Below, piece by piece: positions 5,413-41,632 of a stretch of DNA of 41,632 nt. The DNA is from Escherichia phage K1H: the sequence record NC_027994.1; one strand, written 5' to 3'. Every line of letters starts with the position of its first letter. The first letter of the stretch is position 1. Both the position numbers and the translations under genes were made by a program. Below the pieces are notes generated by a model. It did not search any database. It was not told the DNA's origin and saw nothing but the letters and a program-made list of their open reading frames with translations.

Positions 5413-6039
5413 ATGAGCGAAGAAGTGAAAGACGAAACTATCGAACAACAAGAGACTAAGACCACGTTTACCAAAGAAGAAGTTGACGCGCTGGTATCCG
5501 GTCTTAAAGCTAACAACGAGAAACTCTTGTCTGAAAAGAAAGCTGCCGCCGCTGCCGCGAAAGAAGCCGCAGATGCGAAGCTGAAAGCCGAACAGGAACG
5601 CGCAAAACAGAACGGCGAACTTGAGGCATTCGAGAAAACGTTACGCAGTCAGTATGAGCCAGTTCTCGCCGAGAAGGACGGTAAGATTAGCAAAATGGCT
5701 GAGCGTATCCTCGGCGCAGAACGTAAATCAGTTATCAGCCAGTTGTCTGGAATGTTGATTGATGAGAGCGCAGCGGATATCATCGCTATGATGGTCAAGA
5801 CCGAATTCGACGGCGATGACGTTGTGACCAAGTTCACAGGTGCAGATGGTAATGTCATCACCACCGACGCAGAGCAATTTAAAAAGTATCTGCGTGAGCA
5901 CAAAGCATTTTCGCATCTGATTAAAGCAGATGCAGCAACCGGCGGCGGGGCTTCCGGTAACAAAAATTCTACTGGCGGGGCCGGTGGTGCGGACGTAATC
6001 CAGCAAAAACTTAACGCCAAATACGGCAAACGAGGATAA
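5413..6039 (+). CDS. Scaffolding protein (putative)
   Basis: 208 aa from ATG 5413 with AGGGGA SD; acidic, alanine/lysine-rich helical protein directly upstream of major capsid gene. Track ORF starts earlier (5362). Confidence 0.65.
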   Translation: MSEEVKDETIEQQETKTTFTKEEVDALVSGLKANNEKLLSEKKAAAAAAKEAADAKLKAEQERAKQNGELEAFEKTLRSQYEPVLAEKDGKISKMAERILGAERKSVISQLSGMLIDESAADIIAMMVKTEFDGDDVVTKFTGADGNVITTDAEQFKKYLREHKAFSHLIKADAATGGGASGNKNSTGGAGGADVIQQKLNAKYGKRG

Positions 6040-23549: not shown

Positions 23550-24979
23550 TTCTTACCTCGTCTCTTCATGTAATTAAGCAACTCTTCCTGTACAGATTTC
23601 TTCTCGTCGGTTCGCGCGGCAACAACTTCGTCCAGCGTGTCTTTAGCAACGATGTGGTACAGGAACACCGGCCTCTCGTGTCCTGCCTGTTTCTGGCGGA
23701 CCGGGCCTATTCGCTCGACAACCTGCAAATAGTGTTCAAGATTCCAGCCTTGCGAGATGAACGCCAGATGGTGTCCGCCGTCCTGTAAATTCAAACCATG
23801 ACCGGCTGACGCAGGGTGGACGCACAAAATCTCGATTTCGCCGCGGTTCCATGCTTCCATCTGCTTATTACCCTTAGCACCTTTCGCGAATGCCTGCGCC
23901 TGCGGGAAACGTTTCAGGATACGCTCCAGTTCGTGCTTGAACTGATAGGCTACCAGTAGCGGAGCACCCTGTAACTCCTCAACAATTGACTCCAGCGCAT
24001 CCAGTTTCGTGTCGTGCACTTTCTCCCAGTCTTTGGTTGCTTCTCCGTCTGGCCCTGATACATACACAGCACCAGAAGCAATCTGCAAACACTTTGACGT
24101 CTTTGCCGCGGCGTTAGCCGCTTCAACTTCTCCGCTTTCCAGTTCCGCGAATAACTTTTCCTCCATATCGATGTACGCCTGACGCGCCTTCTTCGGCAGG
24201 TCGATTTCAACCGGTACAATAATCGGCGCTTCGCAACCAAACCACTCGGCGGCGTCAATCGTGAGACTAATGTCTTTCATCTTCTGATGAATCTCATTAT
24301 CCGCACCCGGTCGTGCGTGATACTCCCGCGCCATCGCGGATTTCCCTTTCTGTACCGAGTTAAACCAGCGGTCTGTGAATGCCGTGTACGAAGAACCAAG
24401 GCAACCAAGGCGCTCGCCAGCGTCGATAAACCAGTTCTGCCCCCACAAGTCCTTGAGGCCGTTCGGCGACGGTGTGCCTGTCAGGTTAATGAAACGCTTA
24501 ACCTTTCCGAACGCCACTTTGCTTAGCGCCTTAGCCCGTTTGCTTCCTCCAGAACGGCTACGGAAAGATTTCAGCTTCGTGCTCTCATCAGCAACGATAA
24601 CCGTAAAAGGCCAGTCGTCTTTGCCGTAGTAGTCAATCAGCCACTCGATAACTTCGTAGTTTGTGCACACCACGTTAGCATCTGACTCCAGCGCCGCGAT
24701 ACGGCGCTTCTCTGAACCGGTTGCGTCTACGACACTCAGACAGGGGAAGTTCCAACGTGCCTGTTCCGCGGGCCACGTACCTGACGCAACACGTAAAGGA
24801 GCCAGAATTAACACTCGGTCGTCGTCATTAAGTTGCCCATTACGGAACAGCCGATTGAGAACCCACAACGTTGACCCCGACTTACCGCTGCCCATGCTCG
24901 CCCAGATATTGCAGCGATGGTGCCGCAGCATGAACGAAGTCATGAGCTTCTGGTATTCGCGCCTTTGAAACTTACTCAT
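23546..24979 (-). CDS. SNF2/DEAD-like superfamily II helicase
   Basis: 477 aa; Walker A-like SMGSGKS, DExx box VADEST, C-terminal helicase motifs. Confidence 0.75.
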   Translation of the reverse strand: MSKFQRREYQKLMTSFMLRHHRCNIWASMGSGKSGSTLWVLNRLFRNGQLNDDDRVLILAPLRVASGTWPAEQARWNFPCLSVVDATGSEKRRIAALESDANVVCTNYEVIEWLIDYYGKDDWPFTVIVADESTKLKSFRSRSGGSKRAKALSKVAFGKVKRFINLTGTPSPNGLKDLWGQNWFIDAGERLGCLGSSYTAFTDRWFNSVQKGKSAMAREYHARPGADNEIHQKMKDISLTIDAAEWFGCEAPIIVPVEIDLPKKARQAYIDMEEKLFAELESGEVEAANAAAKTSKCLQIASGAVYVSGPDGEATKDWEKVHDTKLDALESIVEELQGAPLLVAYQFKHELERILKRFPQAQAFAKGAKGNKQMEAWNRGEIEILCVHPASAGHGLNLQDGGHHLAFISQGWNLEHYLQVVERIGPVRQKQAGHERPVFLYHIVAKDTLDEVVAARTDEKKSVQEELLNYMKRRGKK

Positions 24980-25796
24980 TTACCGCCCCCATAAACGCCT
25001 TTATAAATTCGGCGGCTACTTGCGGGACGATGGCATTGCCGTAACCGCGCAATCGTCCCACTCTGGCGGGTATCCCATTAGCCAGCGGGAATGCGCCGGG
25101 TTCAACCGGCCGGAACTTTCCATCACGGCATCCGAGCCAGTCAGCATCTGACCAGAAGCCGTGGTGCGGGTTGGTTGACTCGCTTTCAATCCCTGCTCTG
25201 TTGAGTAGTCCAGCCTGTCGAATGTTCTGTCCCTCCCGTCCGTGCGAATCACTGTCTCTCCGCTCCCTCTGAAGTCGTTCGCTGTCGGTGTAGGCCAGTT
25301 CGTGCGCGCCAAAGAAGAGTCGTTCTCTTTTGTGCGGTGCGCCGACGCTACAAGCTGGGAGTACAGCAAACCCGACGGCGTAGTCTTCTCCTTCCAGGTG
25401 AGCTTGTAAATCGCACATCCACGATTTTGCAATTGCTGCCGCAACCTGCTCCCCAAAGATGACTGGAGGGCGGCACTCGCTGATGAGGTCGAGGAAGACC
25501 GGCGCGAGGTGTCTCGGGTCGAACTGTCCGAGTTGCTTTCCCGCCGCGCTAAACGGTTGGCAAGGCGGGCTTCCCGTCCAGAGAGGCGCATCTTCCGGAA
25601 CTCCCGCAAGTCTGAGCGCGAGAGGCCAGCCGCCGATACCCGCGAAAAAATGACACTGGGTGAACCCGTCAAGGTCTTCTGGCTTAACTTCGGTAATGCT
25701 TCTTTCATCTACAACTCCAAAAGGTATGTGACCCTGTTTTATCAACTCACGCAGCCACGCGGCTGCGCCTTTATCCCATTCATTGTAATAGTTCAT
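24972..25796 (-). CDS. DNA (cytosine-5)-methyltransferase (orphan)
   Basis: 274 aa; motif I FAGIGG and motif [13 protein letters not shown] (catalytic Pro-Cys); no adjacent restriction endonuclease. Confidence 0.7.
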
Positions 25797-25984
25797 TTCG
25801 CCACCAGAACTAACTCTTTACGCCCGAACGCCGTAACGTTACCGGTTACATCTTCGATAACCAGTTTACCGTTCGACTCGACGAACACCGTATCAACGGC
25901 AACAGGTTGACGTGTCTTAACGTTGAAAATCATGTCACCCGGTACGATGTCACGTGCTGGTTTGCGGTCATATTCGTGTTTCAT
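25793..25984 (-). CDS. Hypothetical protein
   Basis: 63 aa; first gene downstream of class-2 promoter at about 26018-26046. Confidence 0.45.
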   Translation of the reverse strand: MKHEYDRKPARDIVPGDMIFNVKTRQPVAVDTVFVESNGKLVIEDVTGNVTAFGRKELVLVAK

Positions 25985-26014: not shown

Positions 26015-26314
26015 CTAACTATAATAGCTAGCTATTAGGTCGTCAACCTGTTTAAACGAACCAACGACAAAAACATTCGCACCACGTTTACGCATCCGCT
26101 CATGTTCCCGTAGCTGGTGCGGGTCTGGCTTCGTGTTCTCGTCTTTCTTAACCTCGACGAACCAGACTATGCCGCCGGGGAGAATTACCAGCAGGTCTGG
26201 GGCGCCGGAACGCCCCTCGTAGGAGAGTTTGCGAACGAGGCCGCCAAGGGCCTCGAATCGGTCTTTTGCGTATTTCTGTACGCGGCCCTCTTTAGTCATG
26301 AGCGTAGATCCCAA
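26015..26314 (-). CDS. VRR-NUC domain nuclease (putative)
   Basis: PD-(D/E)XK-like ...PDLLVILPGG...VEVKK; likely true start is the ATG 5 codons in (ATGA overlap with upstream small ORF). Confidence 0.55.
   Translation of the reverse strand: MGSTLMTKEGRVQKYAKDRFEALGGLVRKLSYEGRSGAPDLLVILPGGIVWFVEVKKDENTKPDPHQLREHERMRKRGANVFVVGSFKQVDDLIASYYS
26018..26046 (-). promoter_or_regulatory. Sigma70-like promoter, class 2 (TTGACG-N17-TATAGT) with perfect 16-bp palindrome TAATAGCTAGCTATTA
   Basis: Minus-strand -35 at about 26041-26046 and -10 at about 26018-26023; overlaps 3' end of VRR-NUC gene. Confidence 0.55.
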
Positions 26315-26447
26315 GTAATGAAAGCCCCGCCTAGAACGGCGACACCGGCAAACTTAAAGAACAGGCCATAACAGAACATCGCGGCTATTCCTGCACCGAG
26401 TAGCAGTGCGAGCATGGTTACTATCACCCGAAATACGAACATTGTCA
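26296..26447 (-). CDS. Small membrane protein (about 49 aa, two hydrophobic segments)
   Basis: ATG preceded by GGGAGGGG SD; stop overlaps VRR-NUC ATG; coordinates approximate (+/-2). Confidence 0.35.
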
Positions 26448-26651
26448 TAATACGCACCCCTCCCGTTTGGTATGCTCAATTCCGCAGCGCGGGCAGATTC
26501 GACAGTCTTCTTCATAAAACCAGTAAATTTTCATTCCAGCACCCACAGATAAATTGCGATGAACATGCCCAATATGGCAACCATCATGACGTATTGACCC
26601 TCGTGACAGTAGACACCGGCAGCAAATCCCGCCAGTACCGCGATAATCAGT

Positions 26652-28832
26652 TTACTTGGCATAACGCTTCATCTCCGCGCCTTCTGCTACAAGAGGGAAC
26701 CCCTCGGCCCACTCTGGTAATTCGCACATCAATCGTTCCAGTTCTGCGACATTGTATTCTGGTAAATCTGGTGTCTCGCAGATAATCTCATCGTGAACAT
26801 GAAGCACAATCGGGTAGCCGTTTGCTTCGACGTTCAGCAGTGCATTAGCCAACAAATCACGGCACAGCGCCTGAGTGCAGTTTTCCACGAGTTTACCGGA
26901 ATATGTGTACTGGAAGCCCCACTGACGGGTTAACTGGTTTTCGCCCTGGTACTTGATGCGCACGTTGGTAGACACCTTCCCGTCTTCGTCTGTCTCTTTC
27001 GACACGCTTAGCCCAACACCCGGATAAGACATAACGCGGCCCGACGGCAACGTCATCCGCAACCACCAACCGGCGACTTTGTTGCCGTTGTTGTCCGTTT
27101 CTACGTTGCGCGAAAACTTAACTCCCCGCGGCCCTGCGGTGAACTCTTTGCCCGGATTGCGGATAGCTGCCATAGCTGCGTCTTCAATATCCCGCCAGAA
27201 AGCTACTGTTTCCGGGTGTGACTCACGCCACATACGCTTGATAGCGTCGCAGGTACGCCACACTTTCTTATCAAGAATATAAGATGGTCGGTCATCATTT
27301 TCACCTGGACGTGGTGGTCGCTTGGCTTCCTGAATACGCGCCCACTCATATCCACGTGCGGTAGCAGCCCAGATGTGGTCGGGGAAAGTCCCGTCCATTG
27401 TTTTTGTCATATCAACAAGGTCAAGGCCGAGGTTCTTGGCGAACTGTACGAATGCGCCGACACCCCCCGCGTAGCCAAGTCCAAGTTCGCATGCCTTACC
27501 AATCTGGCGTAAGTCTTTACGTTCTTTCTTAATGTAATCCGGCTCCATGCCGAACATCTTGCCTGCGGTTACGCAGTAAATATCCAGCCCGGCACGGAAC
27601 GTATCAAGCGCGGTTTCTTCGCCAGCCAGCCACGCCAAACCGCGGCCTTCAACGTTCGAGTAGTCGGCGACGACAAACTTATGTCCGGCTTCCGGGATAA
27701 TGCAGCTGCGAACCGTAGATGCCGTTAGCTTGGCTACATCAAAACGGCGATGTGCTCGGCCCTTAAGTAATGCTGAAATACCTTTATCCAGTTCATCATC
27801 GTGATAGTACCCACGCGCCAGGTTCTGCGGCTGGAAGCCTTTACCCGCAAATCGTAACGTACGTTTAGCTCCACCATACTGGATGCAACCGCGACGGCGG
27901 TCGTCAGACGAGCGGCCTAACAGCAGCGGGTTATATTTCGTTGACGCAGTGGATGCCGCCCCGAGGCGCATTTCTATAATCGTGCGGGCGTCGTCCGGTA
28001 AATCATCGTCAGCAAGCAGGTCGTTAAGCGTTGACTTCTGCGCGTTGTGGATGCGATGCGCAGGCGCCAGTTCACGCAGAATCGGCAGGAAGTCCTTACC
28101 TGTAAGCGAGCCGCCGTATTTACGTTGGGCTTCTTCCTGTAACTGTGCCTTGTGTTTCTCCACAGCTTCAATTGCGGCTTCCGCCAGCGCAACGTCGACC
28201 TTAAACCCGCGGTCGTTAATTAACTGGTCCAGTTCCAGTACACGGTCTTCGAACTCGGAGTTACCCCAACGCGGCAACTTATGGAACACTTCACGCATCG
28301 CGGTGATGTCGCTAACGGCGTACTTGATGAACAGCGCCCACTCATCCGGGTGCGTTTCAGCAGTGTAGCGGCGAATTTTGTAGTTCTTCGGCGTCGGTTT
28401 AGAGAAACGCTGAATAAGCGCTTTGCCTCGTTTGTCTTTCGCGTTGTCTGCAGACACGCCAAGCACTTCGCACAATGCGTCGAGTGAACCCGGCAGCGCG
28501 TGACGAAACGCCCAAATCATCGTATCAATGGTGTTGCTTACGGGAATATCAAAACCCCAGCAGTGCTTCATGATGAGTCTGTCGAACATTGAGCCGTTGT
28601 GCCACACCATCTTAATACGGCTGTTTGGTTTCACCAGACGGCGTAACGCGCGGTGCAAATCACCCGGCATGTCGCTGCCGTTGGTGCAATCCCATACCTG
28701 CACAGGCTCGTCGTCAAAAGCATATGTGCAGATTAGAACTTCGGTGGTTGGATGTTCGGCGTAAGCGTAGGAGCCGACTTTCTTCAAATCGGCTTCGGAG
28801 AATGTTTCAAAGTCTAAGAACAGGTAACTCAT
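26652..28832 (-). CDS. DNA polymerase I-like (family A) with 3'-5' exonuclease domain
   Basis: 726 aa; N-terminal DFETFSE exonuclease motif; size and position in replication module. Confidence 0.85.
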   Translation of the reverse strand: MSYLFLDFETFSEADLKKVGSYAYAEHPTTEVLICTYAFDDEPVQVWDCTNGSDMPGDLHRALRRLVKPNSRIKMVWHNGSMFDRLIMKHCWGFDIPVSNTIDTMIWAFRHALPGSLDALCEVLGVSADNAKDKRGKALIQRFSKPTPKNYKIRRYTAETHPDEWALFIKYAVSDITAMREVFHKLPRWGNSEFEDRVLELDQLINDRGFKVDVALAEAAIEAVEKHKAQLQEEAQRKYGGSLTGKDFLPILRELAPAHRIHNAQKSTLNDLLADDDLPDDARTIIEMRLGAASTASTKYNPLLLGRSSDDRRRGCIQYGGAKRTLRFAGKGFQPQNLARGYYHDDELDKGISALLKGRAHRRFDVAKLTASTVRSCIIPEAGHKFVVADYSNVEGRGLAWLAGEETALDTFRAGLDIYCVTAGKMFGMEPDYIKKERKDLRQIGKACELGLGYAGGVGAFVQFAKNLGLDLVDMTKTMDGTFPDHIWAATARGYEWARIQEAKRPPRPGENDDRPSYILDKKVWRTCDAIKRMWRESHPETVAFWRDIEDAAMAAIRNPGKEFTAGPRGVKFSRNVETDNNGNKVAGWWLRMTLPSGRVMSYPGVGLSVSKETDEDGKVSTNVRIKYQGENQLTRQWGFQYTYSGKLVENCTQALCRDLLANALLNVEANGYPIVLHVHDEIICETPDLPEYNVAELERLMCELPEWAEGFPLVAEGAEMKRYAK

Positions 28833-39994: not shown

Positions 39995-40225
39995 ATGTTT
40001 CACGAACTGAAGATATTACCTGATCATTTTGAGCCTGTTATGGCTGGAATCAAGCTGGCGGAACTTCGATTAAACGACCGCGACTTTAAGGAATATGACA
40101 CTCTGTGCCTGCGAGAATACGAAAACGGTGGGTACACAGGCCGTATCGTTTACCGCCGCATCATTCATGTTGCGGACGTAGGGGCTTACCTGCCTGGATA
40201 CGTGCTATTAAGTATGGAGGGTTGA
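39995..40225 (+). CDS. ASCH/DUF3850-like small protein (tentative)
   Basis: 76 aa; MFHELKILPDHFEPVMAGIKLAELRLNDRDF... resembles DUF3850 N-terminus from memory. Confidence 0.4.
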   Translation: MFHELKILPDHFEPVMAGIKLAELRLNDRDFKEYDTLCLREYENGGYTGRIVYRRIIHVADVGAYLPGYVLLSMEG

Positions 40226-40227
40226 GT

Positions 40228-40320
40228 ATGAGTCTTGAGGTGGTTATTGGCCTTGTCGCAGCAGGTTATTTTATCGGCGTATTGATTGGGTTTATGTGGG
40301 GTAGAGACAGTGTTCAGTGA
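40228..40320 (+). CDS. Tiny hydrophobic peptide (30 aa, MSLEVVIGLVAAGYFIGVLIGFMWGRDSVQ)
   Basis: GGAGGG SD 6 nt upstream of ATG; single TM helix. Confidence 0.35.
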   Translation: MSLEVVIGLVAAGYFIGVLIGFMWGRDSVQ

Positions 40321-40476
40321 CATCAACGCGGCAATCGAAGAAGCAATCTGGCGCCGGTACAATGGTGAGCAGCAACGGCACTTCTGCCTTGTGCAACGCG
40401 GCAACATGATTGCTGTGGTTCAGGACCGCGATAATAAATATCCGAATGCGATGTGGACAACGAGGAATTTCTTAGG

Positions 40477-40713
40477 ATGATTACCAGCATTCCGAACCTG
40501 ATTAAAGAATTTGGCACAATGGCGGAGACATGCCGACAAACCGGCATCAACGAAATGACGATTGCGAAGTACAGCAAAGACGTCGATTGTGAACGCCATG
40601 TAATTTATAACAATCGTCTGATGACGCACGTTAAGACAAGCCCGGTGTTATTCACGCGCCGGGGTATTACTAAAACAGAGCAACGTATTGCTAAAGAGGG
40701 GAGTGGGGAATGA
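40477..40713 (+). CDS. Putative DNA-binding protein (HTH-like)
   Basis: 78 aa from ATG 40477; CRQTGINEMTIAKYS segment resembles HTH; track start 40453 is GTG. Confidence 0.4.
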   Translation: MITSIPNLIKEFGTMAETCRQTGINEMTIAKYSKDVDCERHVIYNNRLMTHVKTSPVLFTRRGITKTEQRIAKEGSGE

Positions 40714-40868
40714 TTAGTATTCTGGAGTTCATCGACAACCAAGTTTGGTACGAGCCAGAGTTAAATAAGTATTCAGTTAATGGGAAAATATTTCGGCGCA
40801 AAGGCCAGGCAGAGCGTTACGCAGCTAAACTATACCGTCAGCTTGTCAAGGATGGTTTCTTCAAATGA
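40710..40868 (+). CDS. Hypothetical small protein (52 aa)
   Basis: ATGA overlaps at both ends. Confidence 0.35.
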   Translation: MISILEFIDNQVWYEPELNKYSVNGKIFRRKGQAERYAAKLYRQLVKDGFFK

Positions 40869-40966
40869 GACTACTAATCATCCCTAACGCCTGGGCCATT
40901 CCCGTAGCTAACGACCATTACGGCGGCGACGGTAAAAGAGCACCACGCCACGGCCTATACAACTGA
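40865..40966 (+). CDS. Hypothetical small protein (33 aa)
   Basis: Coupled ORF; followed by terminator. Confidence 0.25.
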   Translation: MRLLIIPNAWAIPVANDHYGGDGKRAPRHGLYN

Positions 40967-40969
40967 TAC

Positions 40970-40994
40970 AAGCCCTCTACCGAGGGCTTTTCTG
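40970..40994 (+). terminator. Intrinsic terminator
   Basis: AGCCCTC-TACC-GAGGGCT plus TTTTCTG. Confidence 0.55.
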
Positions 40995-41022
40995 TACATC
41001 CTGCCCAATCACCTTATATAAT
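40993..41022 (+). promoter_or_regulatory. Putative sigma70-like promoter of terminase operon (TGTACA-N18-TATAAT)
   Basis: Consensus -10 TATAAT at 41017-41022; weak -35. Confidence 0.4.
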
Positions 41023-41087
41023 CCATTTAGACGCGTAGGGCGCGTCTGGTGCGCTCTGATGGTCAGACGCATATGCAAGGGGATTAT

Positions 41088-41632
41088 ATGAAGCTGAAAC
41101 TCAAGCAGCCATCGCCAGAGGTGGTGCAAGCTGCACATGAAGAAGCTGTTAGCGCAAACCGCCGACGTAAACGACCGCGTGGGAAACAGAGCCTTTATCA
41201 ATCGTCCCGTAATTCCGCCGCGTTGTGGGACCCGGACTATTGCGACGCGTTAATCGAGTTCTTCGACCGCACGTCATGGGAGGCTATGCCGACAGGAGCG
41301 CACGGAGACTACAAAGCAGTCATTGCGGATAAACCGCCATCACTGGCTCGCTTCGCCTTACACATCGGTGTAACTATCCCGATTATTAAGCTGTGGCTGC
41401 GTGAGATTCCCGCATTTGCAGAAGCCTATGAAACAGCACAGGCGCTGGAAGAGGCATATTTCACTGAGACAGGGGCCGCGGGCATCTCTGCTACGTTCTC
41501 CGCAGCTAAACTGGGCCTCGGTAAAGAGAAACCAGTCGAATCCACCGAAGAAACGGCACCGACTGAGATTATTTTTAGTGTTGCAGAGCCTGTAGGTAAA
41601 ATTGTAACAACGAATATGGGTGAGGTAGAGGA
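41088..41632 (+). CDS. terS: Terminase small subunit (3' end truncated by window)
   Basis: Open frame from ATG 41088 to window end (no stop; absent from ORF track); basic N-terminus, precedes terL on the circular/permuted map. Confidence 0.65.
   Translation, partial: MKLKLKQPSPEVVQAAHEEAVSANRRRKRPRGKQSLYQSSRNSAALWDPDYCDALIEFFDRTSWEAMPTGAHGDYKAVIADKPPSLARFALHIGVTIPIIKLWLREIPAFAEAYETAQALEEAYFTETGAAGISATFSAAKLGLGKEKPVESTEETAPTEIIFSVAEPVGKIVTTNMGEVE

Follow-up and report, generated by a model that had tools for sequence, protein, structure and literature searches.

We examined an interval in the genome of Escherichia phage K1H (sequence record NC_027994.1) that is flanked, within a minus-strand replication operon, by the genes for a family-A DNA polymerase and a VRR-NUC nuclease. 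The whole stretch of DNA analysed, 41,632 nucleotides (nt) long, is called the window below; positions are those of the window, and all features are on the minus strand unless stated otherwise. A sequence-only reading of this DNA had proposed two very small open reading frames (ORFs) for membrane proteins in the interval, one beginning in the last codons of the polymerase gene and one ending in an ATGA overlap with the VRR-NUC start. Both ORFs lie where that reading put them and both are real, but the interval holds three genes in all, a soluble one having been overlooked. On the minus strand the order is polymerase, A, M, B and VRR-NUC, with successive overlaps of 11, 4, 4 and 4 nt, three of which take the form ATGA.

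The polymerase gene (26652..28832) encodes 726 amino acids (aa), is annotated as DNA polymerase in phages K1G, Snoke and Bas70, and ends in a TAA codon at 26654-26652, with its final 11 nt shared with the start of micro-gene A. Micro-gene A (26531..26662) encodes a hydrophobic, accessory protein of 43 aa, MPSKLIIAVLAGFAAGVYCHEGQYVMMVAILGMFIAIYLWVLE. Its ATG (26662-26660) belongs to these 11 nt of overlap with the polymerase gene, and a GGAG motif resembling a Shine-Dalgarno (SD) sequence is found 10 nt upstream of the start (26673..26676). Micro-gene M (26445..26534) encodes a soluble, Cys/His-rich protein of 29 aa, MKIYWFYEEDCRICPRCGIEHTKREGCVL, and fills 86 nt left unexplained between A and B. 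The M ATG overlaps the stop codon of A and the M stop codon overlaps the start of B, in both cases as ATGA. Micro-gene B (26296..26448) encodes an almost wholly hydrophobic, accessory protein of 50 aa, or 48 aa from the second ATG. The good SD motif that had been reported for it, GGGAGGGG (26457..26464), is present 8 nt upstream of the B start. The TGA codon of B overlaps the VRR-NUC ATG (26299-26297), again as ATGA. The gene that follows in the chain (26015..26299; 94 aa from the ATG at 26299) encodes the VRR-NUC or Holliday-junction-resolvase-like nuclease, which matches phrog_93 and phrog_5702, has a weak Pfam VRR_NUC match and is annotated accordingly in relatives; its own SD is only weak. 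Given the ATGA at both junctions of M and the two outer overlaps, the polymerase-to-VRR-NUC interval is a chain without gaps.

All three micro-genes belong to existing protein families. In profile comparisons A matches phrog_10404 over its full length (1-43/43, E 9.6e-31), B matches phrog_14925 over its full length (1-50/50, E 9.6e-32), and M matches phrog_38225 over positions 5-32 of 36 (E 2.5e-22). These PHROG families contain the same genes, in the same position and order and with the same overlaps, and have no assigned function. Individual residues of the window proteins differ from their families at a few positions. These are substitutions rarely seen in the families: V25 in the window A, against G, S or C in each of the 56 aligned members (consensus G), and R7 and D47 in the window B, against W7 and V47 in the family consensus.

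The region of the window from 25800 to 27200 matches 448 phage records, nearly all of them Escherichia Kagunavirus or Salmonella Jerseyvirus (Guernseyvirinae), and is 99.4% identical to Escherichia phage K1G; by its sequence, the window phage is a Kagunavirus. For an analysis of coding and selection we used 79 loci from IMG/VR that were recruited with the VRR-NUC protein, three loci from GenBank and the window, of which 52 are Guernseyvirinae. Among distinct nucleotide versions in these 52 loci, every copy is intact (40/40 for A, 44/44 for M and 23/23 for B), so that the frames proposed for A and B by the sequence-only reading hold up, and interruption in close relatives was essentially not encountered. 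Versions that are interrupted or frameshifted are rare and mostly singleton clusters, while intact clusters have up to 326 members. Nei-Gojobori ratios of nonsynonymous to synonymous differences (pN/pS) in the proposed frames are 0.22 for A, 0.10 for M and 0.23 for B. In the other two frames the ratios are 0.8-2.9 for the three genes together and 0.8-2.1 for A and B alone; those of the A off-frames, 1.2-2.1, give no sign of selection. The flanking enzymes have ratios of 0.16 (C-terminal 81 codons of the polymerase) and 0.20 (VRR-NUC). The start codons and the SD motifs (GGAG for A, the GAGGGG core for B) are conserved in relatives, and the overlaps of -11, -4, -4 and -4 nt are seen again across the 52 loci irrespective of cassette content. 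From the intactness, the frame-specific selection and the conserved starts, SD motifs and overlaps, it follows that A, M and B are protein-coding genes of the polymerase operon. They are genuine genes under purifying selection in their own frame only.

That the three are chance ORFs in a non-coding spacer, or that the gene of this interval lies on the opposite strand, is hardly credible. The ORFs are short and all three are missing from K1G's own annotation, and a 123-aa ORF does exist on the plus strand (26414..26785). However, the frame-specific purifying selection and 100% intactness effectively refute chance ORFs, as the PHROG family matches also argue, and the opposite-strand gene is effectively refuted by the one to three stop codons that interrupt the plus-strand ORF in 13 of 16 relatives. 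The A-M-B region has no Rfam match, so an RNA element is not favoured either.

A and B had been described as mostly hydrophobic and of membrane type, which our calculations bear out. Their grand averages of hydropathy (GRAVY) are 1.46 and 1.59, and their best 19-residue windows, residues 24-42 of A and 8-26 of B, have summed Hessa apparent insertion free energies (dGapp) of -2.4 and -2.2. Among 245 six-frame ORFs of 35-80 aa in the window, A and B are among the twelve in which a 19-residue Kyte-Doolittle mean reaches at least 2.0. A consists of a short hydrophobic segment (5-18, with a GxxxG at G12-G16), a polar loop (YCHEGQY) and a strong transmembrane (TM) segment (24-42), after which only E43 remains. 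In B a strong TM segment (8-26) extends to residue 31 and is followed by K32, a second hydrophobic stretch of 14 residues (33-46) and the C-terminal residues DLRS. Small-xxx-small or glycine-zipper-like motifs are found in both, as GFAAG in A and as GAGIAA and GVAVLGG in B. AlphaFold2 predicts B as a single continuous helix (all-helical, predicted local distance difference test score (pLDDT) 87.6), and the only sub-threshold Pfam similarities of A are to the two-helix hairpin families EMC6, MerE and SPC12. A and B are very probably membrane peptides, each with at least one TM segment by these sequence criteria. We also considered whether A and B are paralogues, and rejected this at an hhalign probability of 0.4%. 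In the related phage Bas70, whose genome is fully annotated, A and B are the sole convincing hydrophobic proteins among the 40 of 80 aa or fewer, although one doubtful 30-aa ORF also passes the threshold.

M is hydrophilic (GRAVY -0.43) and its cysteines and histidine are strongly conserved: C14 and C27 in 52/52 sequences, C17 in 51/52, H21 in 50/52 and C11 in 46/52. The near-invariant pattern is C14-x2-C17-x3-H21-x5-C27. Like a retroviral-type CCHC zinc knuckle, M has C-x2-C...H...C within 14 residues and a CxxCG core; however, its C-x2-C-x3-H-x5-C spacing differs from the canonical C-x2-C-x4-H-x4-C. No match to zf-CCHC or to any other Pfam family was found for M, and its sequence looks like a zinc knuckle with non-canonical spacing. 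An AlphaFold2 model of an M variant was of low confidence (pLDDT 55) and uninformative. M shares the frame of the polymerase. Between the polymerase TAA and the stop codon of M this frame stays open (26445..26651, 68 sense codons) and overlaps A, which is read in another frame. An A-M fusion is therefore the product of any frameshift in A, which accounts for the rare fusions of 68-73 aa in databases.

Within the A-M-B interval there is no strong sigma-70-like promoter site, only a single 9-of-12 match at 26448-26420, and one weak terminator-like hairpin at 26342-26327. Ahead of the polymerase gene, at 29600-29572, is the nearest strong promoter-like site on the same strand; a terminator-like hairpin (23159-23140) comes after the helicase gene. 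A, M and B appear to belong to one transcription and translation unit that runs from the polymerase to VRR-NUC, and the overlaps suggest that their translation is coupled.

The three genes differ in how widely they occur. Searches of 50,697 phage genomes with tblastn gave 443 records with M, 222 with A and 119 with B. All of these phages are of the Guernseyvirinae type; their hosts are Salmonella, Escherichia and a small number of others, most of which are enterobacteria. Among the 52 loci A is present in 45 and B in 24; across the whole subfamily, about half of the phages lack A and about three quarters lack B. M alone of the three is present in essentially the whole subfamily and is a core gene of Guernseyvirinae. 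Its annotation is missing from K1G and from many records of Salmonella phages. When 5.8 billion proteins were searched through a word index, only relatives of at least about 72% identity, on phage contigs of 40-45 kb, were returned; apart from frameshift variants and a single spurious repeat protein, a profile of family A run against 1.84 billion representatives returned nothing but members of the family. With a tandem duplicate of M as query, mostly frameshift fusions were returned from a collection that is poor in proteins of fewer than 30 aa. Searches of Pfam, NCBIfam, PADLOC and PDB sequences with A, M and B gave nothing above threshold, with 0 families in PADLOC.

Several natural variants show how the cassette has been remodelled. 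In phages without A, MLSKLII is joined to YYFREEDC (MLSKLIIYYFREEDC...), so that M stands in frame behind the A start codon, and the deletion endpoints fall in a 7-nt microhomology, TGATTAT, present at A codons 4-7 and at the start of M. A second derivative, carried by one phage lineage, is an in-frame chimera of 42 aa with the N-terminus of A and the C-terminus of B, from which M is deleted; it was found on three contigs, of which at least two are from separate samples. These derivatives (A-start/M fusion; A/B chimera) lie on loci L017, L035, L039, L043, L045, L046 and L050 (about 1754-2008) and on L084 (1501-1629), and both kinds keep the overlap chain to VRR-NUC unbroken. Natural variants that lack A, B or M show that A, B and even M are dispensable for growth. 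Frameshift fusions of A with M, and of M with B (68-79 aa), were considered as signs of programmed frameshifting or recoding. This was rejected because the fusions are joined at varying points and almost all of them are singletons, and we read them as mutations or assembly errors.

The slot of B is occupied by B itself, by single-helix peptides of 23-25 aa whose sequences look like remnants of B, by a soluble, Cys-containing protein of 64-67 aa (phrog_25645), by an HNH homing endonuclease, or by nothing. HNH homing endonuclease ORFs (168-235 aa) are also inserted between the polymerase gene and A. These HNH and phrog_25645 insertions lie on L008 (941-1648), L026 (1265-1780), L036 and L037 (1499-2005) and L055 (851-1366), and on L006, L022 and L047 (about 1655-2004). 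Two junctions, polymerase/A and M/VRR-NUC, are hot-spots for insertion in a plastic region, the contents of which stay open and chained to VRR-NUC. The earlier proposal of membrane proteins inside a replication operon thus stands as far as their place in the polymerase-to-VRR-NUC unit is concerned. A and B are not, however, part of the conserved replication machinery, since they are missing from so much of the subfamily and share their slots with homing endonucleases and small cassettes.

More distant relatives, whose VRR-NUC is 42-47% identical, have unrelated small TM ORFs in the polymerase-to-VRR-NUC interval. Such ORFs lie between the polymerase stop and the VRR-NUC start on loci L060, L061, L067, L070, L075, L078 and L082, and at 263-448 on L086. 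On L067, L078 and L082 a Cys-rich N-terminus (CCNCNCNQGRxCP) is fused to a C-terminal TM helix. In phage BcepC6B, gp35 is annotated as a 'membrane associated protein' and is encoded two genes upstream of a methyltransferase-polymerase pair.

Small hydrophobic accessory genes are common in the early and middle regions of phage genomes, and a specialist would not be surprised to find them here. Fremin and colleagues reportedly described, in Cell Reports in 2022, thousands of small phage gene families, many of them predicted to be membrane or secreted proteins. To call A and B unexpected, as the sequence-only reading did, was an overstatement, since PHROG families for them exist and they are annotated in many relatives. 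Coding sequences labelled 'hypothetical protein' are present in Guernseyvirinae (CPT_Snoke_041/040/039 in Snoke; Bas70_0041/0040/0039 in Bas70), and the annotation of phage S4lw has a 'TMhelix containing protein'. Because the genes belong to existing PHROGs and are annotated in many GenBank records, the observation itself was already known. What is new here is gene M, the selection test, the division into core and accessory genes and the series of deletions and chimera. Our literature search found no paper addressing A, M or B, and the sole Kagunavirus transcriptome, in which just 57 ORFs were annotated, does not resolve them (PMC12645636).

We propose that A, M and B would share a transcript with the polymerase and VRR-NUC genes, that overlapping stop and start codons would pass translation from one gene to the next, and that A and B, which are restricted to this lineage, would be helical peptides inserting into the host inner membrane. 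They behave as accessory cassettes in a plastic slot of the genome and are not required for DNA replication, because many close relatives are without one or both. Through small-xxx-small helix contacts, A and B may pack on a membrane protein that belongs either to the host or to a competitor phage entering the cell, and the outcome may be an altered envelope function, such as superinfection exclusion or host-envelope takeover. To this explanation as a whole, accessory inner-membrane peptides acting on a membrane partner and not in replication, we assign a probability of about 0.5. We are confident of its gene, membrane and accessory parts, and not confident of the target of A and B. Our data show that A, M and B are real genes of this operon, under purifying selection and restricted to the lineage, and that A and B are hydrophobic and dispensable; coupled translation, membrane insertion and, above all, the target and the phenotype are inferred.

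The partner-binding reading is suggested by the tiny size of A and B, their all-helix hydrophobicity and packing motifs, the lack of a soluble domain, their expression with middle genes, their accessory distribution and the alternative occupants of their slots. Small phage membrane proteins usually exclude superinfecting phages or manipulate a host envelope protein, and T4 Imm and Sp and HK97 gp15 are small phage inner-membrane proteins of the exclusion type. Like those proteins, A and B are small, mostly hydrophobic and dispensable; their genes lie away from the lysis cassette and vary between close relatives. At 43-50 aa A and B are shorter, and Pfam and PADLOC searches showed no sequence similarity to such proteins. 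Neither A nor B has a match to the Pfam family Imm_superinfect (T4 Imm-like), and no Pfam match to a T4 Imm-like protein was found among the holin-region proteins of Bas70. Small bacterial membrane regulators offer a second comparison. In two reviews, helix-helix binding to a membrane partner is described as a general mode of action of small membrane proteins (PMC12648545, PMC7549839). A and B resemble regulators such as YohP, AcrZ and MgtS in their approximate size class (<50 aa), in having one or two helices and in leaving no room for a catalytic domain, and by analogy helix-helix binding would be expected of A and B too; however, A and B are phage-encoded and not homologous to them.

Several points weigh against this proposal. 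Searches of PHROG, Pfam, NCBIfam, PADLOC and PDB and profile searches found no homology to characterised exclusion, toxin, holin or anti-defence proteins. The topology is ambiguous, with one canonical TM segment plus a 14-residue hydrophobic stretch in each protein and with B modelled by AlphaFold2 as one helix; as the second stretch has only 14 residues, a hairpin and a single span are both possible for A and B. The adjacency and coupling to replication and recombination enzymes and to a Cys-rich core protein could mean a replication-linked role, and the frequent loss of A and B could mean that their function is weak.

A replication-linked role could take the form of a membrane tether, in which A, B or both would anchor the replisome or recombination intermediates at the inner membrane, possibly via M. 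In its favour, the three genes are chained to the polymerase on one side and to a junction-resolving nuclease on the other, M is a core gene with a near-invariant C-x2-C-x3-H-x5-C, unrelated small TM ORFs are present in the same interval in distant relatives, some as Cys-rich plus TM fusions (L067, L078, L082), and BcepC6B has its 'membrane associated protein' gene near the methyltransferase-polymerase pair. There is also a precedent in phi29, whose p1 and p16.7 organise replication at the membrane (PMC4974454) and are, like A and B, membrane proteins encoded among replication genes. However, p16.7 has a soluble domain that binds DNA and terminal protein, whereas A and B have essentially no soluble part with which to bind DNA or protein in the cytoplasm; A and B are dispensable in their lineage, and the two phages are unrelated in type and replication mode. 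In addition, A and B are gone from about half and about three quarters of the subfamily while the replication genes are unchanged, and M persists without A, without B and without both and is itself deleted in the A/B chimera phage. This independent presence and loss shows that A, M and B are not an obligate unit. We consider a tether of this kind improbable. A more specific version, in which A, M and B together would be a split, membrane-tethered zinc-knuckle module that holds a T7-like replisome or VRR-NUC at the inner membrane and corresponds, in a Gram-negative siphophage, to p1 and p16.7 of phi29, seems very improbable to us; in that version the single-ORF 'Cys-rich plus transmembrane' proteins of distant relatives would be the fused form.

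Alternatively, A, B or both may damage the membrane or time lysis by oligomerising in the manner of holins, antiholins or type I toxins. Their tiny size, near-total hydrophobicity and glycine-zipper-like motifs fit this, as does the fact that they are the only convincing membrane proteins outside the lysis genes among the small proteins of Bas70. We nevertheless judge it unlikely. In Bas70 the lysis cassette has its own pair of holin genes next to the endolysin gene (40179-41218) and does not include A or B, which are distant both from it and from the spanin genes (5487-5982). TM segments are present, but the charged, hydrophilic C-terminal tail of holins is absent, the tails of A and B being one to four residues long. 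They have no match to holin families, nor any Pfam or NCBIfam match to the type I toxins Hok/Gef, Ldr, Ibs, TisB and ShoB even at E values up to 1-10, and coupling to middle genes would produce a lethal pore-former early. It is also conceivable that the ORFs serve mainly as relays that hand ribosomes from the polymerase to VRR-NUC by termination-reinitiation, with peptides that are mostly incidental. All architectures keep abutting or overlapping ORFs up to VRR-NUC, the deletion derivatives stay in frame and open, and the SD of VRR-NUC itself is weak. However, a pure relay would not need purifying selection on amino acids equal to that of the flanking enzymes, and phages without A, B or both couple M or the polymerase gene straight to VRR-NUC, so A and B are unnecessary for coupling. 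We accordingly regard a relay as improbable, on a par with the tether.

Downstream of the chain we made some further observations. A 10-of-12 sigma-70-like promoter match (TTGACG, 17-nt spacer, TATAGT) is present at the 3' end of VRR-NUC (26018..26046), and directly downstream of it is a 63-aa ORF (25793..25984; phrog_4879, no assigned function). Two genes downstream of VRR-NUC is a C5-cytosine methyltransferase gene (24972..25796), in which a +1-frame ORF of 230 codons is fully embedded (25016..25708), with its own ATG and a GGAG 6 nt upstream; corresponding embedded +1 frames are present on L086 (819-1850) and L087 (822-1814). Synonymous-codon shuffles gave such an open +1 frame in 0 of 3000 trials under one null model and with P = 0.0007 under another. 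The +1 frame is open for 189-280 codons in 16/16 relatives with the methyltransferase gene, the 189-codon case running off the end of its contig. Frame 0 has a depressed pS and a pN/pS of 0.47, and the +1 frame has a pN/pS of 0.73. Two PHROG families, phrog_363 and phrog_1008, are both labelled DNA methyltransferase and correspond to one frame each, and both ORFs of the region are annotated in the K1G RefSeq record. The +1-frame protein is conserved in the +1 frame of annotated methyltransferases of BcepC6B (Burkholderia; E 2e-34) and eiAU-183 (Edwardsiella; E 3e-33), with conserved elements that include YKLTWK..TP and WPTPT..D.KG modules. In these two methyltransferases the middle of frame 0 is unconserved, and towards the 3' end the same nucleotides show conservation in both frames. 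The +1 frame has the look of a long overlapping gene, or of a recoded one, that is widespread; it could give rise to a two-polypeptide methylase or reflect frameshift recoding.

For annotation, our results mean that from one to three genuine genes of this interval, the core gene M among them, are left out of K1G-type records and of many Salmonella Jerseyvirus ones; beyond annotation, the finding as it stands has little significance. The overlap chain and its in-frame deletion derivatives form a natural series for translational coupling and for the gain and loss of micro-genes. Guernseyvirinae are used in phage therapy and are included in the BASEL collection. Should A and B indeed act in exclusion or on the host envelope, they would rank with the smallest phage proteins known to do so, with natural presence and absence variants at hand.

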